From NCBI GenBank assembly GCA_963705375.1, contig OY970071.1:270001-302000 (forward strand): DNA of 32,000 nucleotides, read 5' to 3'. The notes beneath the pieces were generated by a model. The model did not search any database and was not told the origin of the DNA. It saw nothing but the letters and a program-made list of their open reading frames with translations. Both the position numbers and the translations under genes were made by a program. Positions 5,331-21,879 of the stretch are shown piece after piece. The first letter of the stretch is position 1; each line of letters begins with the position of its first letter. Source of the stretch: Candidatus Saccharimonadota bacterium. GTDB taxonomy: Archaea; Micrarchaeota; Micrarchaeia; Micrarchaeales; Micrarchaeaceae.

Positions 5331-5412
5331 CAATACGGCACCCACACTAGCCACACTAAACTTCATCTGGCGACAGTGCATCTGCAACGCTTTATGCAAG
5401 AAATTCCGGCAG

Positions 5413-6598: not shown

Positions 6599-6673
6599 GC
6601 TCCCATCGTCTAGCCCGGCCAAGGACATGGGGCTTTCAACCCCAGAACCCGAGTTCAAATCTCGGTGGGAGCA
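6599..6673 (+). tRNA. tRNA-Glu (anticodon UUC); CCA is not encoded
   Basis: I folded the cloverleaf by hand. Acceptor stem: GCTCCCA/TGGGAGC plus discriminator A. D stem: GTCT/GGAC. Anticodon stem: TGGGG/CCCCA with loop CT-TTC-AA. T arm: CCGAG-TTCAAAT-CTCGG. Confidence 0.9.
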
Positions 6674-6681
6674 TTTTACGC
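6671..6681 (+). repeat. Left copy of the casposon target-site duplication (GCATTTTACGC)
   Basis: An identical 11-mer lies at 21697-21707, directly outside each TIR. Its first 3 nt are the last 3 nt of tRNA-Glu. Each boundary is ambiguous by about 1 nt because the flanking bases also match. Confidence 0.8.
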
Positions 6682-6735
6682 TGGGATATAGCTAAGGAAA
6701 ACATAATGGACTCCTACTTTCCATAAATCTGAAAT
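6682..6735 (+). repeat. Casposon left terminal inverted repeat (54 bp)
   Basis: tgggatatagctaaggaaaacataatggactcctactttccataaatctgaaat is the exact reverse complement of 21643-21696. Confidence 0.95.
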
Positions 6736-6746
6736 ACCAATAGACT

Positions 6747-7475
6747 TTACTTATCGTCTTTCGGTTCTTCGGAGAAATAAGCAGCATCCTCTGCCCTTTC
6801 AAGTTCCGCTTCGTATCTTTGGTCAGGATCAATACCAGTTCCATCACAATAGATACATTTTTCGCCAGTGTTCGAGTCCTGACCTGCTACACAATCTGGA
6901 TTTCCACATTTGAGCTGTCTTTCTAATAAGGATATATCAATATTGAAGTCTTCGAGAATCAAGTCCCTGTAGTCCTCTGGATGTCTATAAGTAAGCCAGT
7001 CTTTTATCATATCCTCAAAAGCAAGTTCTATCTGATTTAGAAGTATCCCTGGGTTTATAAATATAATACTGTCCTTGTCTATCTCGACTGCGTTTTGAAT
7101 ATCATAAGTAAATTGTCCACCATTCTTGATTCGAGCCTCGTGAACTAAACCACATCTAAACTCATCATAAATGCGGCCTAATTGTTTAGAATCCAAATTC
7201 TTGAAATCGGGCAGATTGCTGCTAATCCAATCTTTAGTTCTTTCCCCGCTTTCATCGATGCCATATTCTGTTCGCGCTATTGCGTCTATTGCACTAAAGC
7301 ACAATATTCCCGCTCCGAACCCTGCTTTCTTCTCATTCAACAATCTGGCAGGTCTGAAGTAGAAACCAATTATCCTTTCCTGATACGCCTTTATCACTTC
7401 TACTGGATTGTCCGTGCTGATAAGCTGAGTAAAAGTATAGTCTGGCGCAAAATATACATTGTCTCCTTTTCGCAT
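6747..7475 (-). CDS. Hypothetical protein with a C-terminal CxxC…CxxC zinc ribbon (casposon cargo)
   Basis: It is a 242-aa ORF with the C-terminal motif CGNPDCVAGQDSNTGEKCIYCDGTG. I recognise no family for it. Confidence 0.55.
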   Translation of the reverse strand: MRKGDNVYFAPDYTFTQLISTDNPVEVIKAYQERIIGFYFRPARLLNEKKAGFGAGILCFSAIDAIARTEYGIDESGERTKDWISSNLPDFKNLDSKQLGRIYDEFRCGLVHEARIKNGGQFTYDIQNAVEIDKDSIIFINPGILLNQIELAFEDMIKDWLTYRHPEDYRDLILEDFNIDISLLERQLKCGNPDCVAGQDSNTGEKCIYCDGTGIDPDQRYEAELERAEDAAYFSEEPKDDK

Positions 7476-7617
7476 AAGATAATATTACTCTCTTGCTAAT
7501 AAATCCTTGCTCATGTTAATTTATTAGACCAAAAACGATGGGTTATTGCAAAGTCATACCAACAAAAAGGCTTAAATACGGCATAGAAACACTCTTATAT
7601 TTGGATGCAACCACGTC

Positions 7618-9618
7618 TTGAGAGTAGTACGACGTGATAATGTGGGCAATAGGCTTTTTCTTTCAATTGTAATAATGCTATTTGTCATGCTTCCTCTTGC
7701 TGCAGCGACATACGAGCCCGATGTCGCCTCGTGGACGTGTTATCAACATTTCTGCTATTCTCCGGGGGCACCATCTCTGTCGGTATCAGGCCTAGTTGCT
7801 ATAGATGGTGGGCAAAGCCTGCAGTTAACTGCGACACCTAATAATTTTACTGATGCAATGAGGGGTTTTATCTATTATTGGTATGCACCAACTGAACTTA
7901 CTGAATCTCCTAACTGCTATACGCCTGCTCTATACAATAGCACCTCTCTTTGGACGTATAGCAACACATGCACACTTATTGCAAATAGTAGCTTTTCAGG
8001 AACCGCTCAGGTTAACATAGAAGTAGAACAAGCGAGTATAACATACGCAGTTGATGGACGTATATTGCCTACTATTTTCGGTTCTGTATCTAAGTCAGTG
8101 TCAATAACTGTCAACCCTGCACTTACTGCACCAACAATCAGCACTCCGTCAATGGCGGCGATAGATGCAGGGCAGATTTCGACAATCTTGATGACCTCAC
8201 CTGCGACAGGGACGTCTCCTGCGTATCAGTGGTTAGAGGAGAAACCAAATGCGAGCGCATACATAGGCGCAGTTGACTGTGCCGCACCGACCACAATATC
8301 ATGCCGTTTCACCACACAAACCGCCGGCACATACTATTTTGAACTTGAAGCAACAGACTACGCAAGCAGCAAGATAAGCTCTCCTGTATCTGTGATTGTC
8401 AACCCTGAAGAGAACATACAAACAACTAGCATTCCGTCATCCTCGAAAAACGCTTTTGGCATAGTAAATGTGTCGCAAGGGTTCAGGACAGAGCGTGGCA
8501 GCAAGGTTGCCGGCGCAACTCCAGACACAACAGCATTTGGAATAGTCAACTCGACCGGAGGTGTCGGCGCATCTCCTTTGTTCCAGCTGAACTACACTTC
8601 AAACACGAACATAAACACCGAAAGCGGATTCAGGACAGAGCGTGGCAGCAAGGTTGCCGGCGCAACTCCAGACACAACAGCATTTGGAATAGTCAACTCG
8701 ACCGGCGGTGTCGGCGTATCTTCTTTCTTCCATCTCAACTATACTGCGTCAAAAGGGCAAACAAATAGTTCATCATACGCTTATTGCGTCTTCGCAGCGA
8801 AGATGTGCAACTATACAAAAGCAACCAGTTCACTGAACACTTACTACTGCACCTTCATAGCGAAGTTTTGCAACCACACTTACGCTAATGCAACATACCT
8901 TCCACAGAACGGGCAGTCAGTCAATCAGCAGTCCGGATTCAGGACAGAGCGTGGCAGCAAGGTTGCAAGCATAACGCCGAGCACACTGACAATCGACTTG
9001 GCGAAGACCGCTAACATGCTCAACTTCGCGATAGGCCCGTCAAACAGCACGGTCAAGTCAACAGGAGTAAGTACGATAGGTCCGTTTGGCACAGGTAAGG
9101 CAGTGACTGGATTCGCGAACCTGGCCGTATCTGCTGTGAACGCAACGCCAATACTGAGCGGCGCTTCCAAGTACACAATCAGAGGCATAAGTAACATAAC
9201 CGCGACTACGAGCGTCAGCAGTGCGACAGTGCCTGTGTTGCTGAAGAACATGACAGCGTCAGTAACGATAGAGCAGACCACTATATCACCATACGATTCA
9301 CAGATCCAACCACCCCTTGCTAATGGGACGTGTCCATCAGGATATGCTGCAGACGGTGGTGTTGCTGATTATGGCTCCAATGGTCAACTTCTCTATTGTC
9401 ATCTTATCCCAACTGCCTCTAGTGTATGTGTAACCGTCACTAATGAACCATATAATGAGATATGTAATGGGCAACCAGTATATTCTGTAACTCAAACGAC
9501 TACATCTGCCACCACAACTGTGATCCCATGGTCATATAATAACGTGACGCATGGTAACTCATGTGGTTACGTAGAAACATGTATCGGATATTCTTGTATT
9601 TTCACATACGAATGTTAA
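7618..9618 (+). CDS. Secreted, probably heavily N-glycosylated surface protein with internal 49-aa repeats and a Cys-rich C-terminus
   Basis: The signal peptide is …RLFLSIVIMLFVMLPLAAA. There are many NxS/T sequons. The SGFRTERGSKVAGATPDTTAFGIVNSTGGVG repeat occurs twice, plus a partial third copy. The start is uncertain: TTG at 7618 or GTG at 7642. Confidence 0.7.
   Translation: MRVVRRDNVGNRLFLSIVIMLFVMLPLAAATYEPDVASWTCYQHFCYSPGAPSLSVSGLVAIDGGQSLQLTATPNNFTDAMRGFIYYWYAPTELTESPNCYTPALYNSTSLWTYSNTCTLIANSSFSGTAQVNIEVEQASITYAVDGRILPTIFGSVSKSVSITVNPALTAPTISTPSMAAIDAGQISTILMTSPATGTSPAYQWLEEKPNASAYIGAVDCAAPTTISCRFTTQTAGTYYFELEATDYASSKISSPVSVIVNPEENIQTTSIPSSSKNAFGIVNVSQGFRTERGSKVAGATPDTTAFGIVNSTGGVGASPLFQLNYTSNTNINTESGFRTERGSKVAGATPDTTAFGIVNSTGGVGVSSFFHLNYTASKGQTNSSSYAYCVFAAKMCNYTKATSSLNTYYCTFIAKFCNHTYANATYLPQNGQSVNQQSGFRTERGSKVASITPSTLTIDLAKTANMLNFAIGPSNSTVKSTGVSTIGPFGTGKAVTGFANLAVSAVNATPILSGASKYTIRGISNITATTSVSSATVPVLLKNMTASVTIEQTTISPYDSQIQPPLANGTCPSGYAADGGVADYGSNGQLLYCHLIPTASSVCVTVTNEPYNEICNGQPVYSVTQTTTSATTTVIPWSYNNVTHGNSCGYVETCIGYSCIFTYEC
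8482..8705 (+). repeat. Near-perfect intragenic direct repeat (147-bp period)
   Basis: ttcaggacagagcgtggcagcaaggttgccggcgcaactccagacacaacagcatttggaatagtcaactcgaccgg is identical at 8482-8558 and 8629-8705. A partial third copy lies at 8948-8976. Confidence 0.9.
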
Positions 9619-9633
9619 CAAGAGGATGTTAGA

Positions 9634-10266
9634 ATGCTAAAGACAAACGTGTTAGTGGTCTTTCTCTTATTACTAACTAATCTGGCAAATGCTTCAACCT
9701 GCAATAACTCTGCACTATACGCATGCCAGAATCAACTTGCAAATCTGAATCAGAGCTATAACAGCTTACAAAACAGATACAACGCATTAAATGCCTCTTA
9801 TTTGAGTCTTACTAAGGAAAACCAAGAGTTAATTAAAAATCTTACCAATGTAACCTCCGAGCGAGATTTGTATAAAACATTGTATTATAATTCATCATTA
9901 AACAAATTATCGGTTGGGGATTTCTTAGCGCTCAAGAATAACATTAATTACACATATGTTCGTGTAAATCAGAGCTTAACACAAATTAAGAATAGTTTTG
10001 AAGAGAAAGTTACTCAAATAAACATGCGGATAAACAACTTTTATTTTATTGTAGTTATAGCAGTTGTTTTTGAGATAGCTGTGTTGCAGTTCAAGCTCTT
10101 AGACTTGATATTGCGAGTCAAGGTCGTCAACAAAGTACATAAGAGATATTCGAAATGGGTGAGAGAATCCAAATTTATAAAACAAGTTAGTACTTTTATT
10201 TTTGTGACTGAGACAAAAAGTGAAACCAAAAGTGACAAACATCAACAAAATGAACCCGTTCGTTAG
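9634..10266 (+). CDS. Membrane-anchored coiled-coil protein with a signal peptide and a C-proximal TM helix
   Basis: The signal peptide is MLKTNVLVVFLLLLTNLANAS. A heptad-like, Asn/Leu/Gln-rich region carries NxS/T sequons. The TM segment is FYFIVVIAVVFEIAVLQF. Confidence 0.6.
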   Translation: MLKTNVLVVFLLLLTNLANASTCNNSALYACQNQLANLNQSYNSLQNRYNALNASYLSLTKENQELIKNLTNVTSERDLYKTLYYNSSLNKLSVGDFLALKNNINYTYVRVNQSLTQIKNSFEEKVTQINMRINNFYFIVVIAVVFEIAVLQFKLLDLILRVKVVNKVHKRYSKWVRESKFIKQVSTFIFVTETKSETKSDKHQQNEPVR

Positions 10267-11269
10267 AAAGGGCATTTGCGTCTTTCTCACATCCTTTTTT
10301 GCAACTGTATTATTATTTGCTTTTGGACCGCCGATAATTCCATCAATATACAATGCAATTTGGGGTGCTAGTACAAAAGCATCTAATGCGGCTATGATTG
10401 GAAATGAAACAAATCCTGTATTAGTCGCCAAAACTTATATGAACTGGATTTCAAACGAAACATATCCTCCATACGCAACAAAACCGTATCTAAACGAAAT
10501 TGGATGGATGATTGTAAACGAAAGCAATTCTCCTAGACTTTTTATTCGCACTACGCTTGCCTCTTGGTTTATTTTTCAAAAGATTGGGAATTGTGGTGAA
10601 GACGCCTATTACTTTGCTGAAATGATGAACTATTCGGGATATCAAAGTAAGGTGCTGTTAGTGGAGGGTGGCGATCACGCATTTGCTGAATTTTACACAC
10701 ATAATGGAACAAAATTTATTGTTGATCCTTCAACTGATCAATTTGTAAATAATGCACTGGCTTTTGGTAATGGGCATATTTATTGGCCAAGAGTAGTGGC
10801 TCATGATCTATCTGGCAATGAAACAGACGTAACTAGTGAATTTTTAAGTAACACCTCTTTGCTCACGATAATACCTGTCAATAATTCAGTTCTAACAAAG
10901 TTTGTTACTGTTGACGTGGAAAGTACTTTCTTAAAGAACCATTCTCCAGAAATATACTCTGAGCCACTTTCTGTTATTAAACATTCTTTTTCTAATGATA
11001 CCCGATTCCAAGTAAGTCTTGGTTCGAATAGAGAGTATCAAATATCGACTACTGTAAACCTCTTCTTATTAACTTTTAAATTAATCCAACCACTTAATCT
11101 GACACAAAACAGAACCGTATATCTAGACATTAGCAAACTAGTTTCATTTAATGATGTTTATTACCCTAGTGCAATTATCGGTCTGTCTCTAGTAATCCTC
11201 TTAGTTTTGCTCACTTTGAGGTTAATTCCTGTTTTAACGTATAAAAACAAAAATAGAACTAGGATTTAG
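10250..11269 (+). CDS. Transglutaminase-like cysteine protease-fold membrane protein
   Basis: A Cys-His-Asp core pattern is present: GNCGEDAYYFAEMMNYSGYQSKVLLVEGGDHAFAEFY…GTKFIVDPS. There are N- and C-terminal TM helices. The ORF opens at 10220, and Met11 (10250) is the likelier start. Confidence 0.65.
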   Translation: MNPFVRKGICVFLTSFFATVLLFAFGPPIIPSIYNAIWGASTKASNAAMIGNETNPVLVAKTYMNWISNETYPPYATKPYLNEIGWMIVNESNSPRLFIRTTLASWFIFQKIGNCGEDAYYFAEMMNYSGYQSKVLLVEGGDHAFAEFYTHNGTKFIVDPSTDQFVNNALAFGNGHIYWPRVVAHDLSGNETDVTSEFLSNTSLLTIIPVNNSVLTKFVTVDVESTFLKNHSPEIYSEPLSVIKHSFSNDTRFQVSLGSNREYQISTTVNLFLLTFKLIQPLNLTQNRTVYLDISKLVSFNDVYYPSAIIGLSLVILLVLLTLRLIPVLTYKNKNRTRI

Positions 11270-11873
11270 GTTTGTCTGCCTTATAGAGTTCTCGGGTTAT
11301 CTTTTCTTCCATTTCTCCCTTGAATTTCCCAATTTCAAATGCCATTTGTGGACTAAGATGATCAATGTTCTTTAAGTATTGTTGCAGTTTTTTTGCTGTT
11401 TCTATAATTCCAGGCATATGTGGAAGATTGTATTTGTCCAACCTGCCTGCCTCTCCCCATTTTATTATAAATGCTAATACTTTTTCAATTTCAACCCTCT
11501 TTTCGGGTTTTTCAGATTCAGATTCAATAACTTTGACCTCTGTATGGTTGTGGTTTTCTTCGCTTTCTGAACTTTTCTCTCTCAGTTTCAATATTCTGGG
11601 CTTCAACACTTCGACTATTTCTGAATCCTTTACGAGCAAAAGACTGGTATGGTCTGGGGCTACGATAACGAAGGTAGAATCCTTAGTTCTATCGAGCCTT
11701 AAGGCATTGCATACCCTTTTTGGAAGGTATAGTTTGGCGGCATTGCCCTTAAAAGTCAACCTTCCTAGTTCAACCACTGTGCCTTCGTCTTCTTCAAAAC
11801 AGGTCAGCCCTCGAATATCTCGGTACATAATATCTCCAAAATAAGGAGCAGTAAGTATTACACTCTTTCTCAT
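11259..11873 (-). CDS. Hypothetical protein, possibly with an AbrB/SpoVT-like N-terminal DNA-binding domain
   Basis: GRLTFKGNAAKLYLPKRVCNALRLDRTKDSTFVIVAPDHTSLLLVKD resembles a swapped-hairpin domain. An acidic/Lys-rich linker follows. The domain call is weak. Confidence 0.45.
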   Translation of the reverse strand: MRKSVILTAPYFGDIMYRDIRGLTCFEEDEGTVVELGRLTFKGNAAKLYLPKRVCNALRLDRTKDSTFVIVAPDHTSLLLVKDSEIVEVLKPRILKLREKSSESEENHNHTEVKVIESESEKPEKRVEIEKVLAFIIKWGEAGRLDKYNLPHMPGIIETAKKLQQYLKNIDHLSPQMAFEIGKFKGEMEEKITRELYKADKPKS

Positions 11874-11920
11874 CGCTAATATTTAGGCTTCAACATAAGT
11901 TCTGATTTAATATTACCATT

Positions 11921-12529
11921 TCACCAAATTATTTTTACCTGGGCTCTATACTTTTCTTTATTCGTGTAATTTGCATAATGGGGAACTTTTAGAATTTTGA
12001 ATTCCTGTCCAAAGTTTCTTTTCAAGATGTTAAACGTATCATTACCAAACGTGATAACTATGGGATTATTAGCTCCTAAATCTTTCAATTCTTTTCGAAA
12101 GATTTCTACATTTTCTTTTTCAAATACTGGATTGGACTGCAAAAAGGCGACTACCTTAGCCGATGATTTTTGATCAAGGTCTTTGATAATATCCGTCATG
12201 TAACCGCCCCAATAAGGAGAATCTCTAAAAGCGAACCTTATTTTATAATCAGTTGCTTCAGGTCGGCTGTCATGAAAGTTTGCTAATGGAACTTTTATAG
12301 CGCCTCGCGAAATGTTTAAACCCACTAGCACAACATTAGGATTTAATTGAGAGAGCAGCACCTTATTCTTTTCTGGATCTAGAATGGTCAGGTCTCCGAC
12401 ATTGCTTTTAGGTTTCTTATTGTCTTCATCAGCCCAAATTGCCCAACTAGCATAATAGCCATACTTCTCCTTAATGAATTCGAATTTTTCTCTAGTAATG
12501 TAGGTTATGTACTTACCTCTTTTCTCCAT
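11921..12529 (-). CDS. Hypothetical protein, possibly of the uracil-DNA glycosylase superfamily fold
   Basis: VLVGLNISRG resembles the Mug-type GINPG motif. …ANFHD…, YMTDIIKD and …VPHYANY have spacing that recalls UDG motifs A and B. This is pattern recognition only. Confidence 0.5.
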   Translation of the reverse strand: MEKRGKYITYITREKFEFIKEKYGYYASWAIWADEDNKKPKSNVGDLTILDPEKNKVLLSQLNPNVVLVGLNISRGAIKVPLANFHDSRPEATDYKIRFAFRDSPYWGGYMTDIIKDLDQKSSAKVVAFLQSNPVFEKENVEIFRKELKDLGANNPIVITFGNDTFNILKRNFGQEFKILKVPHYANYTNKEKYRAQVKIIW

Positions 12530-12662
12530 ATTGCTCTTCCATAAGCCGTTTTATAGCATAAAGTATAAGTTCAGACTTGCTGTAGTCCTCCTTTACCTTG
12601 CTTTCGAGCCAGTCTAGCTGCTCTCGGCCTAGTGAGACCCTGGTTTGCTTCTTATGAGCCAA
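12513..12662 (-). CDS. Small ribbon-helix-helix (CopG/Arc-like) protein. It is below the ORF-track length cutoff.
   Basis: My own translation from TTG at 12662 reads (M)AHKKQTRVSLGREQLDWLESKVKEDYSKSELILYAIKRLMEEQYGEKR*. Its stop overlaps the start of 11921..12529 by 17 nt. Confidence 0.5.
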   Translation of the reverse strand: MAHKKQTRVSLGREQLDWLESKVKEDYSKSELILYAIKRLMEEQYGEKR

Positions 12663-12704
12663 ATCATCATCTACTGATTATGCTGATTTAACTACTTTGA
12701 ACAA

Positions 12705-13253
12705 CTACTCTTTAAGAATTTCCCAAGATATGCACCTAACGACCTGATGCTCAGGATGCACTAAGTTTTCTCTTCTTTCTTCTACTCTTGAACTTAGTGG
12801 TAACTTACAAACAGATTTAGCGATTAATTCGAACGAACTAAATAAAGGATCTAGGGATATTTTTGCCTGTTGATGTTCGTATCCAATTACAAATATTGCC
12901 TTTCTAATATTTTTTGGGTAGTTGATCAATTTGAAGGCATCTCCGATCGCTGAAATATTACCACTATACGGATGTAAGAGATTAACAGACCAGTTTTCGG
13001 CTTCTTTCCCGTTGTCACCATAGGGTCTAACAATCTTAAATTCCAATGCCCATTCATCGCCAAATGTTAAATCCGGAGTTCGTCCAGTGTGGGATGAGTA
13101 TCCTTTATCTGTTAAAAGTTCAGACAATTTTTTTATCAACTGTGGCTCACCATAGGGCCCAATTCCTGGTTTAAAAGTTTTAAAGACGGGTCTCGACAAA
13201 TCAAACTCTTTAAGTGTGTCAGCTATTAGTCTAACTAATTCATTTAGTTCCAT
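12705..13253 (-). CDS. PD-(D/E)xK-fold nuclease (restriction endonuclease-like)
   Basis: GRTPDLTFGDEWALEFKIVRP contains the PD…ExK arrangement. The gene heads a minus-strand operon with the RHH and UDG-like genes. Confidence 0.55.
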   Translation of the reverse strand: MELNELVRLIADTLKEFDLSRPVFKTFKPGIGPYGEPQLIKKLSELLTDKGYSSHTGRTPDLTFGDEWALEFKIVRPYGDNGKEAENWSVNLLHPYSGNISAIGDAFKLINYPKNIRKAIFVIGYEHQQAKISLDPLFSSFELIAKSVCKLPLSSRVEERRENLVHPEHQVVRCISWEILKE

Positions 13254-13314
13254 GATTACTTATATTCGAAGTAAGGCTTTTAAGGTTGGGTTGCAGTTGT
13301 GGTGTGGTGACTTG

Positions 13315-14016
13315 ATGGCACTAGGAAAGAACGAGGGCCAGAAGTATGAAGATATGATTTTTGAATCGCTCAAGAGGTTCGGATTTCTTTATCCCGGGAC
13401 AAGTCAAATGGGTATGGCCGGAGGTGTAGATGCCATCTTTTGCCATCACAATATGCCATATAATCTAGAAATAAAAAATGAATTAAAGGTGGATTACGGC
13501 CAGAAAAAACTCTCATGGAATAAGGAAAAAGGATGGTCTTTTTCTATAGACGACGATATAACAAGATTATATGTAAAGCACGTAAAAGTGTTAGAATTTA
13601 TTCAGAAAAAGAAAATAATTCCTCGCCGATATACAAAACCGCTGCACGAAATAACCTGCCAGGATGGCAAAGCAGATCAGAAAGCTTTCGAGGATCGCAT
13701 ACCCATCAACATTGCGGCTCTTTGGCGTTATTATTCTGAAAAGGAAGTGCATTATATTCAAATCGGCAGGGGATATGGGTTCTATCACCTCGATAAGGAT
13801 ATAGCAGAACTAGGAACACCACAATTCAACTGTGATCTGTTCTTACGACTTAGAGCAAAATATCATGATCATTATGATCGCTCTAGTGGATTTGCGAAGC
13901 CTACTCCCTGGAATTATAGTTTCTTTGCAGTACTAAAGGTAAAGAGCAAGCCAAAAAGATCAGAATTCAACCTAGAAGAAGGGAGGGGACAACGGCTTCC
14001 ACCAATCAAACCTTAA
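13315..14016 (+). CDS. Candidate type II restriction endonuclease (PD-(D/E)xK-like), partner of the adjacent methyltransferase
   Basis: GGVDAIFCHHNMPYNLEIKN shows a D…EIK pattern. The gene is convergent with the MTase, with their stops 29 nt apart. The ORF opens at 13216 but overlaps the neighbouring gene, so Met34 (13315) was chosen. Confidence 0.5.
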   Translation: MALGKNEGQKYEDMIFESLKRFGFLYPGTSQMGMAGGVDAIFCHHNMPYNLEIKNELKVDYGQKKLSWNKEKGWSFSIDDDITRLYVKHVKVLEFIQKKKIIPRRYTKPLHEITCQDGKADQKAFEDRIPINIAALWRYYSEKEVHYIQIGRGYGFYHLDKDIAELGTPQFNCDLFLRLRAKYHDHYDRSSGFAKPTPWNYSFFAVLKVKSKPKRSEFNLEEGRGQRLPPIKP

Positions 14017-14045
14017 TAGGCACAGCCTTTTGTATATAATATGTT

Positions 14046-14927
14046 CTACTTTATGTAATCCTCTAATTTGCTCGATTTTAAGCCCTTGTTTGCGTCGGGC
14101 CATATTTTTTCCAGATTCTTAGTAAATCTATAGTATCTAAGATTACTGGGTGCACTTATATCATCTGCATTCCTTATTTTTTTAACTCTATAGTTTATCA
14201 TATCTGCGTATGCGGGGTCTATCTCCACACCTATAGATTTTCGTCCGAGTTGCTTTGCAACAACTAGTGTAGTCCCTGTACCTGATGTTGGATCAAAAAC
14301 TGTATCTCCAGGCTTAGAAGAAGTTAATATTATTCTTAACAGCAGATCGATAGGTGATTGCTGTAAATGCGACCGTTTGCCTGCTTTGTCGCGTAACGGT
14401 TCATCTCCGGCCAGATAGCCCGATGTGAGTTCTCTAATATCCTCCCAGATATCAGTTACATACACCCCTTTTTCTCTAGGAATTTTCCAGTTTGCAGGCA
14501 TCGGCGGATCTATTCTCAATTTATTAAAGGTTCGCGGCTTGTCCCCTTTAGTAGCAAATGCAATTATCTGATATCCCTTTCCGTGACGTGCATTACCTGG
14601 AACTGCGGAAGTAAGTTTTTTCCAGATTATCACATTCTGCAGTTTCCACCCGGTTTCTCGTAATGCGTTTAGAACGTATTCTGTATTCTTTTCACGTTGC
14701 ATGAAATATATCGCTCCGCCATCTTTAGTGATTGTGTAGATACCACTCAATACCGCTCTAATCCAGTTCCAGTACTCTTTACTTATTTTAGCATCATCAA
14801 AATACTTGTAATCTTTATCCTGATTAAATGGCGGGTCAAAGAAAGTTAAATCCACTTCATCAGCTTTATGACTCTTGAAATAAAGTAGCACATCAGAATT
14901 TACCACGGTCGGCTCAAATATATTCAT
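14046..14927 (-). CDS. Beta-class N6-adenine/N4-cytosine DNA methyltransferase
   Basis: Motif IV (LTFFDPPFN) lies near the N-terminus and motif I (VFDPTSGTGTT) near the C-terminus. This is the permuted order typical of the N6_N4_Mtase family. Confidence 0.85.
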   Translation of the reverse strand: MNIFEPTVVNSDVLLYFKSHKADEVDLTFFDPPFNQDKDYKYFDDAKISKEYWNWIRAVLSGIYTITKDGGAIYFMQREKNTEYVLNALRETGWKLQNVIIWKKLTSAVPGNARHGKGYQIIAFATKGDKPRTFNKLRIDPPMPANWKIPREKGVYVTDIWEDIRELTSGYLAGDEPLRDKAGKRSHLQQSPIDLLLRIILTSSKPGDTVFDPTSGTGTTLVVAKQLGRKSIGVEIDPAYADMINYRVKKIRNADDISAPSNLRYYRFTKNLEKIWPDANKGLKSSKLEDYIK

Positions 14928-15097
14928 AACAACACCTCACTTTACGGTATACCTTAATTATCTTCCCTTCTTTTATATTCTTTTGCATGTACCGCAATGT
15001 TGACTTATTTATGCCTAGTCTCTTATGGGCTTTTTCACACATAATTATTACTTTATTACATAAGTATTTAAATATTACTCTATTTATTTATTACTTT

Positions 15098-15241
15098 ATG
15101 AACACACCACTATCTAGGACCACAATACTCATAGATAAGGAACTATGGAAGAAATTCAAGATCAGATCTATAGAAAGAGGAATATCTGCTTCCGAACTGC
15201 TATCTAATTTAATAAAAAAAGAACTCAGTGAAAAAAGTTGA
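15098..15241 (+). CDS. Ribbon-helix-helix protein, a possible controller of the R-M module
   Basis: The sequence is MNTPLSRTTILIDKELWKKFKIRSIERGISASELLSNLIKKELSEKS. A TATA-like TATTTAAATATT lies about 25 nt upstream. The gene is divergent from the MTase. The ORF-track start (14987) is probably too far upstream. Confidence 0.6.
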   Translation: MNTPLSRTTILIDKELWKKFKIRSIERGISASELLSNLIKKELSEKS

Positions 15242-15379
15242 AGCAAGAAAAAGCGCTTATGCTAACCAATCAAGCCAGCAGTACTCTTATGCCTCGAAGA
15301 AGCAGACTATTTGTATAGCGTTGCCATAAACGCATTTTGTGTAAATGTTTATGTAAATAAAAGTTTATATACCTGAGTA

Positions 15380-16483
15380 TCATACAGGTGTCTGACCACT
15401 CGAAGGTTTTTGTCTTGCCGCTTCTGCAAGAGACAACATTTCCCATTTCTTGTTTTTATCTTCTTCAAATTCATTCAACTTGGAAATAAAATCGGCATCA
15501 CCATATTTAAATATTCTTGCGGCTTTGATGTATCTGTCAAAAAGGTCTGTTAGATGTCCTCCTATTTTAGGAAATAATGTTTTCGTTATTGTTTTACTGG
15601 CTAGAAGTCGTTTGCCTTCACCGTGTCCTATCTTTTCTACAACTCTGTTAAATAACTTTGGATCTACTCCTGTAATTTCATAGAATTTCAGCGTAGATGA
15701 GAATCTCTTTAAATACGCTTTTAACTTTCTTCTAAATGCAGAATCTGCAAAGCGTGTTGAGAACTCGATTAAGAAATCAAGACGATATAGTTTTAGCCCC
15801 TCTATCTGTTGAATATCTTTGATTTTTTCATTTTCTGGAAGGTCAAATCTTTCTCTATTGAAATCAATCACACTATCGGAAAATATATCCTTGCCTGTTT
15901 TGATACAAGTAATAAAGCTCTGAATCATTCTTAAGGATCTAGCAAACGCGTGCCAATCTATTTCTAGAGCCAACACCGTTCTACTTTCTGACAAGTCCTT
16001 TATTGTTATTTTGTTATCCCTGAAATTCTGAGTTACTCGTCCGAAGGTATATTCTGCGATATTCTTGTCGAGGTCCGCTGGCAGATAATTTGGAGGAGTA
16101 TTCTTATCGAAGATCGAATCAGTATAGACTCCAAAATTATAGAGACCCAGTGGATCGGTTCCATGCCGGTACATTGCATGTGCCTTCCGCAGTTCTTGCA
16201 CAATGTTAGCTAGGTACCAGATGTCTTTCTTCTCTCTATTAATTGCCACTTTAGAAAGTTCCCATACCTTCTTGCCGTTTTCATCTAGTCGTTTGTGCAG
16301 TTCACCACTTTTTCTGAGCTCCTGCGAAATTTTATAGAGGCCCGATTCGCTTAATCCTGTGCCTTTTCTTAGTTCCTCCCAACTCCTACATTGTGTTTCG
16401 CCAGATGGACCAAAAAACAGACCTAGTAGTTTTCTTCTTGTTTCTGTCATCTTTTCTTTTCTGAACTCAGATACCTTTCCCAT
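15380..16483 (-). CDS. Hypothetical protein with an N-terminal winged-HTH
   Basis: RSWEELRKGTGLSESGLYKISQELRKSGELHKRLDENGKKVWELS looks like a wHTH. I recognise nothing in the rest of the protein. Confidence 0.55.
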   Translation of the reverse strand: MGKVSEFRKEKMTETRRKLLGLFFGPSGETQCRSWEELRKGTGLSESGLYKISQELRKSGELHKRLDENGKKVWELSKVAINREKKDIWYLANIVQELRKAHAMYRHGTDPLGLYNFGVYTDSIFDKNTPPNYLPADLDKNIAEYTFGRVTQNFRDNKITIKDLSESRTVLALEIDWHAFARSLRMIQSFITCIKTGKDIFSDSVIDFNRERFDLPENEKIKDIQQIEGLKLYRLDFLIEFSTRFADSAFRRKLKAYLKRFSSTLKFYEITGVDPKLFNRVVEKIGHGEGKRLLASKTITKTLFPKIGGHLTDLFDRYIKAARIFKYGDADFISKLNEFEEDKNKKWEMLSLAEAARQKPSSGQTPV

Positions 16484-16612
16484 GGAAACACAGACAGATT
16501 ATCCGAATAAGACTCTTATGTGTTTCTCTACTGAGTGGAGATTTTCAGGAAAGGCACTTTCCTAGTGGAAAATGACAGCTTCTAGTTCTGCATAGAATAT
16601 TCTGGTGTAAAT

Positions 16613-16918
16613 ATGTCTATAAAAGACAAACCAACAGAAGATACGGACGGGTTAACGTCTCACCTGAGCAGACGTAGAGAAGAGCTACTGTTGTGTCTTG
16701 ACAGCTATCTAGAGGCAATAGAAGTGAAGATAGCTTCAGGTTCACGCATAGATTTGCCAGCTGCACTAAAGAACAGAATAGAAGCAGTAGCTAGGCAAAA
16801 AGGCTGCTCGACTAACAAGGTGGCTGCTGTCATCCTTTCCAAATACCTTGACGAAGGAAAGAGGCTGCTGAGTTCGGACGAGAAGGAGGAGGAAGAAGAT
16901 GGTGCCTTCGACATATAG
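16613..16918 (+). CDS. Ribbon-helix-helix DNA-binding protein with an acidic tail
   Basis: RIDLPAALKNRIEAVARQKGCSTNKVAAVILSKYL is followed by EKEEEEDGAFDI. This is the first gene of the plus-strand core operon. Confidence 0.6.
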   Translation: MSIKDKPTEDTDGLTSHLSRRREELLLCLDSYLEAIEVKIASGSRIDLPAALKNRIEAVARQKGCSTNKVAAVILSKYLDEGKRLLSSDEKEEEEDGAFDI

Positions 16919-17453
16919 CCGAGGAGTCAAAAGGGGCCGTAAAGGCCCCCTCTCCTCAAATAAGCGCAGGTTGTCATCCAAGTCCTGGACCTCACTGACT
17001 CCGACAGAGAAGAGCGCGCGCATACGCGCACTGTCTGTGATCGGAGATATGCGTTCTGGTAAGTCCTTCAGTGCGTCGGTTAAGCATGCCGGAACCAGCC
17101 CAAAAGTCGCCAAAGCCAATCTAAAGGGCTTCATATATAAGAGGGGAGGCCGATGGCATGCGAGAGCAATAGATAACATAGAGCGCTCGATGGTCATTTA
17201 CACAAAAGGGAAGCTAAGAAGTATGATAATAGACAACAACATAGTCGCGTCCACCATCGGTCGCTATCTTAACGACGTAAAGTTTATGCTAATCGGAAAG
17301 CTCGGTTATGATGAGTTCGTTGAAAGATACAAGAACCTGTCAATCATAGATCTCGACGGCAAAGAGCACAGGCTTGAAACGAGGCTCAGCAAGCTCAAGG
17401 ATATCGAACTCTCACGGGAAGATGTACCGTTCAGTGACATCTATGACTACTGA
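16899..17453 (+). CDS. Hypothetical basic protein, possibly DNA-binding, in the casposon core operon
   Basis: It is a 184-aa ORF that overlaps its upstream gene by 20 nt and its downstream gene by 11 nt, suggesting translational coupling. I recognise no motif. Confidence 0.55.
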   Translation: MVPSTYSRGVKRGRKGPLSSNKRRLSSKSWTSLTPTEKSARIRALSVIGDMRSGKSFSASVKHAGTSPKVAKANLKGFIYKRGGRWHARAIDNIERSMVIYTKGKLRSMIIDNNIVASTIGRYLNDVKFMLIGKLGYDEFVERYKNLSIIDLDGKEHRLETRLSKLKDIELSREDVPFSDIYDY

Positions 17454-17739
17454 AAGGGTGTGCGCTATATGTGGGGAGGCTGATCCACGAGTCCTGATGG
17501 AGAAGCACCATATTTTCGGAAAGAGCAATAGCCCAGAAACGCTTATCGTCTGCCACAACTGCCACGATAAGATTACCCACGATCAGAACCTGTTGCCACC
17601 AAAAACTCGCAGCAGCAAGGCAAGCAAGGCGGATAAACAGGCATTTGAGGATGTCGCCATAGGAAGTGTGCTGGAGCTTTTCGGAAGACGTCTCAAGACA
17701 AGAAGGTATAAGCATGGACAAGATAAACGCAGCCGTTAG
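17443..17739 (+). CDS. HNH endonuclease
   Basis: CAICGEADPRVLMEKHHIFGKSNSPETLIVCHNCHDKITH is a classic HNH/His-Me finger with paired CxxC motifs. The start was chosen at the ATG at 17443. Confidence 0.8.
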   Translation: MTTERVCAICGEADPRVLMEKHHIFGKSNSPETLIVCHNCHDKITHDQNLLPPKTRSSKASKADKQAFEDVAIGSVLELFGRRLKTRRYKHGQDKRSR

Positions 17740-20353
17740 AGTGTACAACAGGCTTAAGGACGATGCCAGGAAGCACACAGCCAACCGTCCGAAAGAGCAA
17801 AACATCCAAAATTATGATAAAATCCTCTGTTTTGACACAGAAACCCGTAGTGACGAGGCGCAGGCCCTGACCTTCGGCTCCTTTGTCATCATGAACAACA
17901 ATGCCGTAGAGGGCATAGGGCTGTTCTACGCACCAGAAGAGGTCACTGCAAGCGAGCTTGCGGTCTTGAAGGCATATTGCAGGAGAGACCCCGCCCTCAA
18001 GCTTTACACGTTGCAGGAGTTTGTAGAGCAGGTGTTTTACCCAAAAGTCTACACCGAGCAGGTAATATGCACTGCTTACAATGCCCCGTTTGATATAAGC
18101 CGTCTGGCCGTAAGCTTTGGGTATGCGAAAGGCTGGACGAAAGGAGGGTTTACGTTTAAGCTGAGCAATGACAAGCGGTGGCCGGCAATAAGAGTCAAGC
18201 ACGTTAACGCTACAGAATCCTTGGTACAGTTCCAGGGTACCCGTCATGGGAAGTTCAGGGGCAACTTCGTTGACAGCCAGAAGATAGCAGCTGTGCTCAC
18301 GGACACCCAACGCATCTCTCTGAAGAGAGCGTGCGCCATCTTCAACAAGAAATACCAGAAACTCGATGTGGAAGAGCACGGAAAGATAACTGAGAAGTAC
18401 GTGGATTACAACATCCGTGACACACTAGCAACCGCAGAGCTCTTCACCAATCTGTGCAAAGAATACAACAAGTATGGGATAGAACTGCCACTGACAGAGA
18501 TCTACTCTTCCGCTTCAATGGGGAAAGCCTTCCTTGAAAGCCTCGGGATAGCTCCATTCATGAAATTGAACCCCGATTTCCCGCCTGAGCTTCTGGGCAA
18601 GCTCTCACAGGCATATTACGGCGGGAGGTGCGAGTGCAGAATAAGGAAAACTCCTACAAGAGTCTCGATACTAGACTTCACATCACAATATCCGAGTCTT
18701 TTCCTCTTGCTGGGTTTGCAGGACTTTCTTATCGCTGAACGTGTAAGTTATCTCGATGATACCGAGAAGGTAAAGAGGTTTGTGGATACCATCACACTCA
18801 ACGACCTTCAAAACCCGAACACTTGGAAACGCCTCAATGCCATTGTTGAGGTTGAACCAGACGAGGATCTCATACCTTTGAGAGCAGAATACAGCGAAGA
18901 CACGCTCACGGTCGGGCTGAATTACGTCAGTTCAAAGAAACCCCTTTACTGGGGCCTGCCAAGCGTCGTGCTGTCGAAATTAATGACCGGCAAGACTGCA
19001 AAGATACGGAAAGCGATACGTTTCATCCCCATAGGCAGACAAACGACATTGAAGAAGGCAACAATTCTAGGAATGGATATCGACCCCAGAATGGACAGCA
19101 TATTCAAGAGTCTCGTAGAAGAGAGGCACAGATGCAAGAAGGCAGGCGATGTAAAGGAGAAGTGTATCAAAATCATCGTAAACTCCTCAAGCTACGGAAT
19201 TTATCTAGAATTGAACCGAGAAGACAAAAAGTCAGACTTGGTTGTTTATAGTGGTGACGAGACCTTCCCAGAAAATAAACGCTTCGAGAAGGAGGGCAGA
19301 CACTACAACCCGATTATCGCCACACTCATAACGGATGGCGCCAAGCTATTGCTAGGAATCGGAGATTACATACTCCAGAAGCATAACGAAGTCGTTGCAT
19401 ACGCTGACACGGATTCGCTTGCAGTGCCACCACAATATGCAGATGAAGTGGTGGCTTTCTTTGACGCTCTAAACCCCTATGACAATGTCAGCCACCTGCT
19501 TAAGGTAGAGGAAAAGAACATCTGGTTCTACGGCATAAGCGCAAAACGATACGTCCTTTACGATATAGACGATAAAGGAAACTTTATCATAAAGGACGAT
19601 GAAGGGAATGAGAACTATTCCTTGCACGGTCTTGGTCACCTCTCGAATCCGTTCAACAAGACAGTAACACACTGGCAGAAGGAAATCTGGTTGGATCTGC
19701 TGAGACTGCATTACAAGAAAATCGGCGAGGCAGAGTTTCTTAACAAATATAGAAACACTTACGCCATTTCACAGTTTTCAGTTTCGACAGCTACCCTAAT
19801 GAGACGGTTCGAATCATTTAACAAAGGCAAGAGCTACAATAAGAAGATAAAACCGTTCAATTTCTTCTTGATAGGATTCGGAAATAACGAAGCCGTGAAG
19901 CCCATTGCTCCGTTCTGCAATGATGCGCAAGCAATGCCCTATGGTGATTTTATAAACTACAAGAACGGGAAGAAAATGAACGGTCAGCAGCACTTCAAAT
20001 CACTGTCGGATGAGCTATGGTCGTACAACAACCATCCCGAATCAAAGTTAGACGGTGATACGAGCACATTGCAACGCAGGCGCATCATCATAAACAGGAC
20101 AATCTACATTGGAAAGGAAGCAGACAAGATTGAAGAGAACCTTAGCGGTCTAGGCAAAGTATATTATAATGTCTACAAGAGCCCAGAGGATACGCAAATG
20201 ATTATCGCAAAAATCCTTTCGATGTCGTTAAAAGACGCCAGACTTGCAGGAATATCAAAAGGGCAATATTACAACCTACTTGCAAGTGCAAAGAAAGGCA
20301 GACTTCCTAACTTGAAGAATAAGACGCTGAAGAGACTAGGATTTTTAGACTAA
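17714..20353 (+). CDS. polB: Family B DNA polymerase
   Basis: Exo I is FDTET, Exo II is YNAPFDISRL and Exo III is YVDYNIRD. Pol motif A is LDFTSQYPSL, motif B is KIIVNSSSYG and motif C is YADTDSL. The start is MDKINAAV (17714); the ORF opens at 17666. Confidence 0.9.
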   Translation: MDKINAAVRVYNRLKDDARKHTANRPKEQNIQNYDKILCFDTETRSDEAQALTFGSFVIMNNNAVEGIGLFYAPEEVTASELAVLKAYCRRDPALKLYTLQEFVEQVFYPKVYTEQVICTAYNAPFDISRLAVSFGYAKGWTKGGFTFKLSNDKRWPAIRVKHVNATESLVQFQGTRHGKFRGNFVDSQKIAAVLTDTQRISLKRACAIFNKKYQKLDVEEHGKITEKYVDYNIRDTLATAELFTNLCKEYNKYGIELPLTEIYSSASMGKAFLESLGIAPFMKLNPDFPPELLGKLSQAYYGGRCECRIRKTPTRVSILDFTSQYPSLFLLLGLQDFLIAERVSYLDDTEKVKRFVDTITLNDLQNPNTWKRLNAIVEVEPDEDLIPLRAEYSEDTLTVGLNYVSSKKPLYWGLPSVVLSKLMTGKTAKIRKAIRFIPIGRQTTLKKATILGMDIDPRMDSIFKSLVEERHRCKKAGDVKEKCIKIIVNSSSYGIYLELNREDKKSDLVVYSGDETFPENKRFEKEGRHYNPIIATLITDGAKLLLGIGDYILQKHNEVVAYADTDSLAVPPQYADEVVAFFDALNPYDNVSHLLKVEEKNIWFYGISAKRYVLYDIDDKGNFIIKDDEGNENYSLHGLGHLSNPFNKTVTHWQKEIWLDLLRLHYKKIGEAEFLNKYRNTYAISQFSVSTATLMRRFESFNKGKSYNKKIKPFNFFLIGFGNNEAVKPIAPFCNDAQAMPYGDFINYKNGKKMNGQQHFKSLSDELWSYNNHPESKLDGDTSTLQRRRIIINRTIYIGKEADKIEENLSGLGKVYYNVYKSPEDTQMIIAKILSMSLKDARLAGISKGQYYNLLASAKKGRLPNLKNKTLKRLGFLD

Positions 20354-21552
20354 GAAAGGTGTCTCTTGGTTTTCTTATATATCTTGATCTTTCTTCCTTC
20401 TCTGATGTATTTTTGCTGATACCAGAGTGTGGATTTGTTAATTCCCAGTCTCTTTCTTTCTTCTGGAGTTATGCTAAGAATCTTGTCTCTTTGTTCTGTA
20501 TCATCATTCCTTTCTATCTCTATCAGAGGAACGTTGAATTCTAATTTGTCTCTTTTTCCTAAGAGATAATTTGCAAGAATCTCGACGTTATCATACAGGA
20601 CATTCTCATAACTGAAATTCTCGCCTTTATATGGTGCCTTGTTATTGAAATTTAGTCTTATTTTCTCTATCAGCATTCTTGCAGTCTTTTCTCTGAGTCT
20701 TATGTGAAAATTCTCTGTCACGATGAAGTCTTTTTTCTTCAATTTCTTCTCTTCCAAGAGCTGTATCACGGATAAATCGACTAGCCACCTGTAAAGTTCC
20801 TGCAAATCGCAGTCAAGAGAGTACCTACCGTCTTTTACTTCGTGTAGGAATCCTATTGCAATGTCTAGGCCTATCGAATTTGCAGTTCTTCTAACTTCGG
20901 AGTCCATCACAGAATAGCCATAATTCAGGAGGGCGTTAATCTCGTCTGATGCATTCCTGTTATGGGAATTTAGTGTGTTGTTTCTTCTTTTAAAGTTGAA
21001 TTCGGGATAAAGAGTGTTGAAGACAGCAAACAAGCATCCCCAATACATGTCTGCTATCCGACCCTCGTAAGTCATTATAGAATTTATGTCGTGTGAAGTT
21101 CCTGAAAAGAACTTCTCTTCTCTGGCAAAAGAGGATTCCAACTCGTTAACGTTGATCTCGGGATAGTATCTGGAGAGTTCTTTGAGAAGATTAAAAGACT
21201 GTCTCACTTTCTCTTTTATGATGAGTTTTGCTATCCTTTGTCTTTTTTCTTGGTCCATGTATGCTCTGTATTGCATTATCTTCAATTTGCCTGAAATTGG
21301 TTCCCTAGGAAGTGTCACACTCATAAGGTTCCCATTCCAATTTAAAAGAGACAAGCTGATTTTATGGCTCATCAGCCACCTCATGGCCTCAAAAGAAACC
21401 TGTCCGTAGTTGCCGTCTATGATGATAGAGTCATAGGATATCTGAAAAGGGAAGAATTCCTGTCTCGTTTTCTCTAATCTATTCTCGATGACAAGACGTC
21501 TTCGATCCACGTTTATACTAGTCCCAAAGCCAGCCACCAATAATGGATTCAT
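20350..21552 (-). CDS. cas1: Cas1-family integrase (casposase) with a C-terminal HTH
   Basis: Cas1 hallmarks are present: TYEGRIADMYW (catalytic Glu region), NALLNYGYSV and GFLHEVKDGRYSLDCDLQELYRWLVD (His plus acidic residues). The C-terminal ERKRLGINKSTLWYQQKYIREG is an HTH, as in casposases. Confidence 0.9.
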   Translation of the reverse strand: MNPLLVAGFGTSINVDRRRLVIENRLEKTRQEFFPFQISYDSIIIDGNYGQVSFEAMRWLMSHKISLSLLNWNGNLMSVTLPREPISGKLKIMQYRAYMDQEKRQRIAKLIIKEKVRQSFNLLKELSRYYPEINVNELESSFAREEKFFSGTSHDINSIMTYEGRIADMYWGCLFAVFNTLYPEFNFKRRNNTLNSHNRNASDEINALLNYGYSVMDSEVRRTANSIGLDIAIGFLHEVKDGRYSLDCDLQELYRWLVDLSVIQLLEEKKLKKKDFIVTENFHIRLREKTARMLIEKIRLNFNNKAPYKGENFSYENVLYDNVEILANYLLGKRDKLEFNVPLIEIERNDDTEQRDKILSITPEERKRLGINKSTLWYQQKYIREGRKIKIYKKTKRHLS

Positions 21553-21642
21553 TCATATCCCTCTTTCTTTCGAGGTTATATGATCTTCTAAAGAATATAA
21601 ACATTTCCATCGACAAATCGTCGACAAAATAGACACTTCAGC

Positions 21643-21696
21643 ATTTCAGATTTATGGAAAGTAGGAGTCCATTATGTTTTCCTTAGCTATATCCCA
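21643..21696 (-). repeat. Casposon right terminal inverted repeat (54 bp)
   Basis: It is the exact reverse complement of 6682-6735. Confidence 0.95.
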
Positions 21697-21707
21697 GCAT
21701 TTTACGC
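21697..21707 (+). repeat. Right copy of the target-site duplication (GCATTTTACGC)
   Basis: It is identical to 6671-6681. Confidence 0.8.
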
Positions 21708-21879
21708 TTTCGAGGGAAGGCAGAATGATACCTATTGAGTCAGGCAGTCTCGGTCACATGCTGGAGAGGAGTGCTTTTGGCAGCAAACCAAAGAAAAGAA
21801 AAAGATGAAGAGTGACAGGCATATTCTTTATCCATCTAATCCACCAGCTTCACTTTGTATTTGAAAGGACCTACGGACA

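Follow-up and report, generated by a model that had tools for sequence, protein, structure and literature searches.

Which kind of element occupies the 15 kb that follow the tRNA-Glu gene in the stretch of DNA analysed here (32,000 nucleotides of contig OY970071.1, hereafter the window)? The initial annotation took it for a complete casposon, a self-replicating transposon whose insertion depends on a Cas1-type enzyme, at the 3' end of tRNA-Glu, and our analysis bears this out, with exact terminal inverted repeats (TIRs) and target-site duplication (TSD), a casposase, a family B DNA polymerase (PolB) and a family 2 terminus. We conclude with high confidence that segment 6683-21695 represents a family 2 casposon of intact structure, carried by an archaeon that is uncultivated and probably Micrarchaeota-like. 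The boundaries, the gene identities, the family assignment and the independent tRNA-Glu insertion of a close relative were observed in the course of the analysis.

The features that define the ends of the element are these.

6599-6673, plus strand: tRNA-Glu(UUC), intact, the integration target (ARAGORN; Rfam RF00005, 58.8 bits, full length)
6670-6682, plus strand: left TSD copy, AGCATTTTACGCT, 13 bp (exact repeat of 21696-21708; boundary from the conserved family 2 terminus GGGATATAG)
6683-6735, plus strand: left TIR, 53 bp, starting GGGATATAGCTAAGG, with pairing that runs on to 6680 (terminus as in MetMaz-C1, MetMah-C1 and five related ends)
21643-21695, minus strand: right TIR, 53 bp, with pairing that runs on to 21698 (inverted-repeat search)
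21696-21708, plus strand: right TSD copy, AGCATTTTACGCT (exact repeat of 6670-6682)

Inverted-repeat arms were detected at 6680-6735 and 21643-21698 and were 100% complementary over 56 nt (blastn-short, 4e-28); the perfect 54-nt reverse complement between 6682-6735 and 21643-21696 that had been described initially is contained in this pairing. The second-best inverted repeat of the window was 34 nt long at 74%, and the number of perfect 53-nt inverted repeats expected by chance in 32 kb is ~6e-24. The 11-mer GCATTTTACGC reported to flank both ends was likewise found at 6671-6681 and 21697-21707, and the longest perfect direct repeat was the 13-nt AGCATTTTACGCT at 6670-6682 and 21696-21708 (chance of such a flank match, given the ends, ~1.5e-8). 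Because the innermost bases of the direct repeat overlap the outermost bases of the TIRs, four partitions into TSD and TIR are formally equivalent (13/53, 11/54, 9/55 and 7/56), and each of them yields the identical pre-insertion sequence, ...GGTGGGAGCATTTTACGCTTTCGAGG... The ambiguity in TSD length is thus wider, at 7-13 bp, than the 11-13 bp allowed at first.

The boundary was chosen by aligning the casposase-proximal ends of the loci that carry the closest casposase homologues with the ends of the window element. The aligned ends all started GGG(A/T)TATAG(C/G)TA and reached ...ATGAAA about 50 nt in, and the terminus GGGATATAG was common to the window element and five related element ends. 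Published family 2 TIRs start GGGATATAGGTAAG... and GGGATATAGGTAAGTC... in MetMaz-C1 and GGGTTATAGGTAG... in MetMah-C1 (PMC4046053 supplement); the window terminus GGGATATAG equals that of MetMaz-C1 and resembles that of MetMah-C1. Since the related ends and the published family 2 TIRs begin alike, we placed the boundaries so as to give TIRs of 53 bp and a TSD of 13 bp, in place of the 54 and 11 bp first proposed, and the element spans 6683-21695, or 15,013 bp. Alternatively, the TSD may be 14 bp long and carry one mismatch. The GC content of the element was 0.408, against 0.516 in the left flank.

How does this insertion sit relative to the tRNA? The tRNA-Glu(UUC) gene ends in ...GGTGGGAGCA (...GGGAGCA), so that GCA forms its final three bases, in agreement with the earlier observation that these bases belong to the direct repeat. 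The first 4 nt of the 13-bp TSD, AGCA, are the final 4 nt of tRNA-Glu and are followed by an AT-rich stretch, giving a 4-nt overlap and a full-length tRNA. The TSD of Methanosarcina mazei is 14 bp long and consists of CGCA, the last four bases of tRNA-Leu, and an AT-rich part, again with a 4-bp overlap (PMC6977970); at the junction, the MetMaz-C1 repeat reads ...AATGCG followed by GGGATATAGG, and the window ...AATGCT followed by GGGATATAGC. In Aciduliprofundum boonei the TSD is 15 bp and overlaps tRNA-Pro by 5 bp, and the casposase generates 13-16 bp in vitro on non-specific targets (PMC5137440). Casposon TSDs overall range from 1 to 27 bp, and overlaps of TIR and TSD are common (PMC4046053). 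The initial annotation had raised the prospect of a distinct lineage or spacing rule; the 13-bp TSD with its 4-nt tRNA overlap instead mirrors the M. mazei geometry, and lies at the short edge of family 2 without the need of a new rule. The published tRNA targets of family 2 are Pro, Leu and Arg, and no report of tRNA-Glu as a casposon target was found in our literature search.

The casposase of the element, and a conserved block upstream of its gene, lie next to the right TIR.

20350-21552, minus strand: casposase, 400 aa, homologous to Cas1 and ending in a C-terminal helix-turn-helix (HTH) (Pfam PF01867, 1.2e-59)
21594-21629, minus strand: subterminal block that lies upstream of the gene for the casposase and reads TTTTGTCGACGATTTGTCG, a gap of some 8 nt and GTTTATAT (conservation seen at six related ends)

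The best solved-structure match of the casposase was 6OPM (8.9e-74, 252 bits, residues 3-384), the complex of the M. mazei casposase with DNA (PMC6977970), and the best match to a CRISPR-associated Cas1 structure scored 7.7e-28 (101 bits). Residues E163, H237 and E252 correspond to the catalytic E162, H232 and E247 of M. mazei and were invariant in an alignment of 21 homologues. The 6OPM alignment, which runs to residue 384, covers the C-terminal HTH, and residues 366-392 are conserved across homologues; the Cas1 homologue with intact catalytic motifs and an HTH that had been recognised by eye is thereby substantiated, with triad and HTH both invariant in the 21 homologues. The protein was 56% identical to a Cas1 of Methanocella arvoryzae, a gene that is not confirmed as MetArv-C1's own, and its named relatives include Micrarchaeota and Marsarchaeota metagenome-assembled genomes (MAGs). 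A weak similarity (E = 0.003) was seen between the C-terminal tail of the PolB and the casposase HTH; resembling Cas1 and PolB tails are a published trait of family 2 (PMC4046053). The subterminal block can be read as a TATA-box-like promoter with a tandem TTTGTCG operator-like motif. Equivalents stand at matching positions in five related loci (L005, L008, L011, L017 and L018), and relatives carry a G-rich spacer of 50-100 nt between TIR and block, which the window element does not.

Generic Cas1 models matched the casposase strongly, and this would also suit a Cas1 that served a CRISPR-Cas adaptation module, with the array and the partner genes located beyond the window. All CRISPR-subtype NCBIfam Cas1 models, however, scored far below their cutoffs, and with a casposase as its best structural relative and a casposase-specific C-terminal HTH the protein appears nearer to known casposases than to CRISPR-associated Cas1. 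Moreover, the gene lies within an element bounded by TIRs and TSD that has host genes on both sides, and no CRISPR array, cas2 or effector gene was found in the 32-kb window (Rfam, which returned the tRNA only; Tandem Repeats Finder; Pfam on plausible ORFs, i.e. open reading frames), in keeping with what had been concluded from reading the sequence. We therefore consider the probability of a CRISPR-Cas module negligible.

The polymerase precedes the casposase gene and is encoded on the opposite strand.

17666-20353, plus strand: DNA polymerase of family B, casposon family 2 type; C-terminal tail HTH-like (motifs, fold and homologues)

The ORF comprises 895 aa, and the likely start, an ATG at 17714, gives 879 aa. 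Profile searches of both large proteins had been proposed at the outset; they recovered Cas1 (PF01867, 1.2e-59) but returned no Pfam match for the polymerase. Neither Pfam (to E = 10) nor NCBIfam nor PDB sequences gave a match, and a profile of 27 sequences also found none among PDB sequences. Homologues with 40-43% identity were annotated polymerases of Methanosarcina, Methanolobus and Methanococcoides genomes that carry PF00136/PF03175. The invariant columns of the polymerase alignment coincide with the catalytic positions of PolB (Exo I-III, motifs A-C and KxY), namely D57/E59, N139/F142/D143, Y248/D252, D337/Y342, K502/N506/Y510/G511, D581-T582-D583 and K627-R628-Y629. An AlphaFold (AF2) model was of good quality (predicted local distance difference test, pLDDT, 86.7; predicted template-modelling score, pTM, 0.81), and all its top Foldseek matches were PolB: in the PDB the best was yeast Pol alpha (8e-14), with phi29 and archaeal 9N/KOD polymerases also present, and among viral models, in the range of ~1e-16 to 1e-15, the polymerase of His1 virus was nearest (5e-16) and that of a tectivirus was also found. 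On the basis of motifs, predicted fold and homologues, the 895-aa ORF is a family B polymerase despite the absent match in sequence libraries, and the claim that it carries all Exo I-III and Pol A-C motifs holds.

Five further genes accompany the polymerase and casposase.

17374-17739, plus strand: HNH nuclease, ORF of 121 aa; the gene call in an independent assembly is 80 aa, 17497-17739 (Pfam HNH_2, 7e-4; PHROG HNH, 4.5e-7)
16899-17453, plus strand: core protein of 184 aa, g184, which every related element conserves (blastp, 36-56% identity to ORFs at the same position in L012, L013, L016 and L008)
16613-16918, plus strand: ORF of 101 aa, g101, first gene of the core operon, ribbon-helix-helix (RHH)-like by eye only (no significant family match; counterpart in L013 at E = 0.22)
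15380-16483, minus strand: protein of 367 aa, g367, divergent from the core operon (positional counterpart in L013 at E = 2e-7; no Pfam match)
14987-15241, plus strand: ORF of 84 aa, g84, a possible RHH protein (Pfam RHH_10, E = 0.009, below cutoff)

The HNH gene stood directly upstream of PolB in four relatives, and the nuclease named in the initial annotation is upheld by weak but consistent matches. For g184 no Pfam or PDB match was obtained, including by a profile against PDB; we infer that it and the HNH protein are core accessory factors. Family 2 casposons encode two distinct HTH proteins, one of which has C-terminal HEAT repeats, and g367 is a candidate for a family 2 HTH protein, although its single-sequence AF2 model was unusable (pLDDT 37). 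As to the RHH/HTH genes claimed within the element, the RHH_10 similarity of g84 lends weak support, but no significant domain match was found.

Several results weigh against this reading of the segment. The two HTH proteins of family 2 are unconfirmed, as g367, g184, g101 and g84 all lack a significant domain match, and neither Pfam to E = 10, a profile against PDB nor Pfam scans of single family members returned one for the core HTH candidates; the HNH_2 match (7e-4) lies under the Pfam cutoff; and the polymerase went unseen in sequence searches of Pfam, NCBIfam and PDB, its assignment coming from motifs, fold and homologues. The TSD, at 13 bp at most, is 1-2 bp shorter than in characterised family 2 elements. 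Finally, the searches turned up neither an empty site nor a second copy or solo TIR, which leaves mobility in the host undemonstrated, and ERR11594402, a separate assembly from the same organism, displays the occupied state only.

Is the element mobile, then? The perfect repeats had been taken to indicate a recent, possibly still active, insertion. Perfect TIR pairs are usual among published casposons (PMC4046053 supplement), and because they are the norm they do not date the insertion; with neither an empty site nor a second copy at hand, that part of the initial annotation is not sustained. The search for the predicted empty site that it had suggested was carried out with the exact 23-mer across the junction, scanned in genome and metagenome collections, and found none. 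The sole 23-mer matches, L002 and L003, were rejected as empty sites, being circular, devoid of a tRNA and otherwise dissimilar to the window. Exact look-ups of the host thymidylate kinase returned no match, and the flanking host proteins had no near-identical copies elsewhere in the collection. In ERR11594402, which was reached via the HNH gene of the right flank, the contigs break inside the TIR.

These results would be expected if the family 2 casposon were a fixed, immobile resident that is silenced or lacks a needed host factor: the genome and metagenome collections hold no empty site, the window holds a single copy, and the junction is occupied in the ERR11594402 assembly as well. The casposon excision measured in M. 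mazei, which is extremely rare at 1e-5 to 1e-9 per genome (PMC10359463), also speaks for this reading. Against immobility, none of the core ORFs is truncated, the catalytic residues are intact and the TIRs and TSD perfect, and a casposase 92% identical to that of the window is found at another tRNA-Glu in another genome, which shows recent mobility of the lineage. We regard an immobile resident as unlikely, although it is the likeliest of the alternatives considered, and current activity of the casposon as plausible but unproven.

The relative in question, L017, is the closest one known to us and lies directly after a tRNA-Glu (CUC) in the opposite orientation. Its context is not syntenic with the window, as the downstream sequence differs and the upstream gene is not thymidylate kinase, and the spacing from the tRNA end to the GGG terminus is 9-10 nt in both. 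L017 is an independent insertion and, being located at a different tRNA-Glu, suggests that this sub-lineage targets tRNA-Glu. L005, whose casposase is 70% identical, adjoins a tRNA-Pro at the same spacing, and the sequences flanking L018 and L008, taken from the opposite strand, start with AGCA and CGCA, respectively. Inverted-repeat and terminus-motif searches located no second TIR in L008, L013, L016 or L018, and scans of viral contigs with the casposase, the casposase alignment, the TIR terminus and a 26-mer of the pre-insertion site (described below) gave no match.

The tRNA 3' end is a classic attachment (att) site, and the right flank of the casposon contains three att-like copies of it.

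23356-23374, plus strand: att-like copy of the tRNA-Glu 3' end, 19 nt, followed by the shared CCAGTGGTCTTTGAC...
24632-24644, plus strand: att-like copy of the tRNA-Glu 3' end, 13 nt, followed by the shared CCAGTGGTCTTTGAC...
29992-30002, plus strand: att-like copy of the tRNA-Glu 3' end, 11 nt, followed by the shared CCAGTGGTCTTTGAC...

The 13-mer of the tRNA-Glu 3' end had 3 matches against 0.03 expected by chance. Shared arms extend 3' of the copies (23374-23445, 24645-24716 and 30002-30073), and a second shared arm occurs at 24545-24631, upstream of one copy, and at 27973-28059. The GC content between 21.7 and 27 kb was 0.44 (left flank, 0.516). Among the genes that Pfam scans recognised in the right flank were one for an HNH protein, others for HTH proteins and a probably truncated major facilitator superfamily (MFS) gene, and no integrase. 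The copies resemble att sites left behind by earlier integrase-type elements that had used the same tRNA-Glu, either nested or arranged in tandem, and they mark the locus as an integration hotspot; the casposon, being nearest to the tRNA, is the latest arrival. The same arrangement of a casposon beside integrase-type elements occurs in M. mazei strain 1.F.A.1A.3 (PMC4779613).

Such surroundings invite the view that the 15-kb element is itself an integrase-type integrative element or provirus in tRNA-Glu, with Cas1 and PolB as mere cargo. However, no tyrosine or serine recombinase is encoded inside it and PHROGs recognised no capsid or packaging gene; its ends are perfect TIRs with the canonical casposon terminus; and the flanking repeat holds 4 nt of the tRNA, as compared to 11-19 nt in the att-like copies. 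More broadly, searches of the element ORFs with Pfam, NCBIfam, PHROGs and PADLOC recognised no integrase, transposase (DDE included), capsid/packaging or cas2 gene. An integrase-type origin is hence very improbable, and the family 2 casposon is retained as the explanation. The right flank was also considered as the site of a second casposon, in tandem or decayed, and this was rejected, there being no further TIR- or TSD-like copies and the HNH of the flank being unrelated to that of the casposon.

A separate observation concerns a 26-nt identity, GGGAGCATTTTACGCTTTCGAGGGAA, between the pre-insertion site (window 6667-6681 joined to 21708-21718) and L002 (2511-2536) and L003 (1442-1467, minus strand). 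Both are circular, ~3.5 kb long and 30% GC, are mutually 91% identical over the region of the 26-mer and encode a tyrosine recombinase (PF00589, 6e-13); the 26-mer falls within an ORF of 471 aa without a Pfam match. We rejected a link through a phage-type attachment site (attP) between the window, L002 and L003, since an attP rebuilt from the tRNA to the first att-like copy matched the 26-mer only and the arms scored as shuffled controls did. By a rough estimate chance is unlikely to account for the match, which may reflect chance or a shared recombination site.

The remaining genes of the element are cargo, which makes up ~8.5 kb and is lineage-specific.

14046-14927, minus strand: N6/N4 DNA methyltransferase, for which no restriction enzyme was recognised as a partner (Pfam PF01555, 7.7e-42; PADLOC MTase_II, 1e-37; NCBIfam)
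6747-7475, minus strand: ORF of 242 aa (no match in Pfam, PHROGs, NCBIfam or PADLOC)
7618-9618, plus strand: ORF of 666 aa with weak PKD-like similarity (match of a 56-aa segment to a protein of the L008 contig)
9634-11269, plus strand: two ORFs of 210 and 349 aa (the latter with a weak transglutaminase-core match, below cutoff in Pfam)
11259-14016, both strands: four ORFs, of 204, 202 and 182 aa (minus) and 266 aa (plus; matches phrog_26930, of unknown function)

As defence cargo, PADLOC recognised the methyltransferase alone. The 666-aa protein is probably a surface protein. Compared with a 1059-aa Big_3_5/MBG_2 protein of L008 (6771-9950), a segment of 56 aa was 79% identical and the rest ~29%, and the shared segment suggests the exchange of a surface-protein module. 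The cargo of relatives is very different: L018 encodes a tubulin-family protein (PF00091) as well as a PD-(D/E)XK nuclease (7455-8105 and 9228-9926), and in L013 type I restriction-modification genes (2692-5553) adjoin the PolB core.

Outside the element, the MFS transporter ORF (27324-27902) aligns with no more than the first half of MFS_1, the Pfam profile, and is probably truncated; it ends beside the repeat arm 27973-28059, which fits a rearrangement breakpoint. A 48-nt tandem repeat (31801-31939, 2.9 copies, 78% matches) lies inside ORFs at the right window edge. The left flank contains an IS200-type Y1 transposase gene (850-1332, minus strand; PF01797, 3.9e-26) and a gene for a repetitive protein of 1048 aa (beta-propeller/NHL and InlB B-repeat; 2253-5399, minus strand) with internal repeats of ~123 nt. 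The terminal segment of this protein is common to two smaller neighbouring ORFs (repeats 472-806, 1712-1978 and 4992-5323), which suggests a surface-protein family with a common anchor.

Which organism carries the casposon? The window belongs to a contig of 1,209,602 bp. The best named matches of the host dCTP deaminase were proteins of Micrarchaeota/Micrarchaeia MAGs (60-65%), with some from Marsarchaeota, and this single marker gene indicates that the host is probably a Micrarchaeota-like small-genome archaeon. The host's nearest relatives were represented by two contigs, of 27.7 and 706 kb, whose dCTP deaminases (P0252 and P0254) were 92% and 83% identical, respectively. Our literature search found no paper that describes casposons in Micrarchaeota-like archaea. 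A wider proposal, to which we give somewhat less than an even chance, is that the window element represents a sub-lineage of family 2 in DPANN-type ultra-small archaea that has switched to tRNA-Glu with a 13-bp stagger and inserts at the head of an integrase-type att array; the 26-nt identity with L002 and L003 could then reflect competition of casposase and tyrosine recombinase for the same site. If true, both the host range of casposons and their tRNA repertoire would be widened.

The chemistry, the determinants of target recognition and any current activity of the element are inferred, and from its homology to the systems of A. boonei and M. mazei the following course of integration can be proposed. 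The casposase would recognise the 3' part of tRNA-Glu (T-arm and acceptor) together with the NGCA motif, and would attach the element by its 3'-OH ends (termini GGGATATAG...) to both strands of the target at points 13 bp apart, the initial cut falling 4 nt inside the tRNA's 3' end. Gap repair would duplicate AGCATTTTACGCT and leave the tRNA gene intact, and the element's own divergent family B polymerase would presumably copy it. The locus offers a naturally occurring variant on which target reading by casposases, and the way in which they fix the integration stagger, could be tested, a matter that bears on the evolution of CRISPR spacer integration.

Characterised casposons are few and come mainly from methanogens, Aciduliprofundum and Thaumarchaeota. 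Among them, the family 2 elements of M. mazei (MetMaz-C1 and those at tRNA-Leu) are alike in the TIR terminus (GGGATATAGG.. as against GGGATATAGC..), in a TSD that opens with NGCA, the tRNA's final 4 nt, and continues AT-rich, and in the PolB-HNH-Cas1 core, whose casposase has the catalytic triad and a C-terminal HTH. Both orientations relative to the tRNA occur in the two systems, and either may adjoin integrase-type elements at one tRNA. Unlike the window element (tRNA-Glu, TSD 13 bp, TIR 53 bp), those of M. mazei have a tRNA-Leu or intergenic target, a TSD of 14 bp and TIRs of 31-59 bp; the window PolB is only ~41% identical to the nearest Methanosarcinales polymerases, the cargo is unrelated, and the host, probably a Micrarchaeota-like archaeon with a small genome, is not a methanogen. 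AciBoo-C1, at tRNA-Pro of A. boonei, is also inserted just past the tRNA with a TSD overlapping its 3' end, and has a comparable gene set of PolB, HNH, HTH proteins (candidates in the window element), methyltransferase and casposase; the enzyme of A. boonei prefers certain sites and depends on the T-arm region of the tRNA and on the TSD segment. That element measures 9 kb, with 40-bp TIRs, a 15-bp TSD and a 5-bp overlap, whereas the corresponding values in the window are 15 kb, 53, 13 and 4. MetArv-C1 of M. arvoryzae (tRNA-Arg, 14.5 kb) is similar in size and tRNA targeting but has 134-bp TIRs, a 14-bp TSD and another tRNA as its target.

Families 1 and 4 share with the window element Cas1-mediated integration, a PolB gene and TIRs at both ends. 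Family 1, however, has a protein-primed PolB (PF03175 type), a casposase without HTH and usually ef-2 as target, and membership was rejected because the window casposase has an HTH and the homologues with which its PolB groups are of the family 2 type. In family 4 the TIRs measure 225 bp and the TSD 35 bp, and the accessory genes are of zinc-finger, REX1-like and tetratricopeptide repeat type; this family was rejected as well, the window element having 53-bp TIRs, a 13-bp TSD and no such accessory domains by Pfam. Taken together, the element fits the established family 2 model closely and changes no concept; it is modestly new in its tRNA-Glu target, its 13-bp TSD, its highly divergent PolB and its probable Micrarchaeota-like host.

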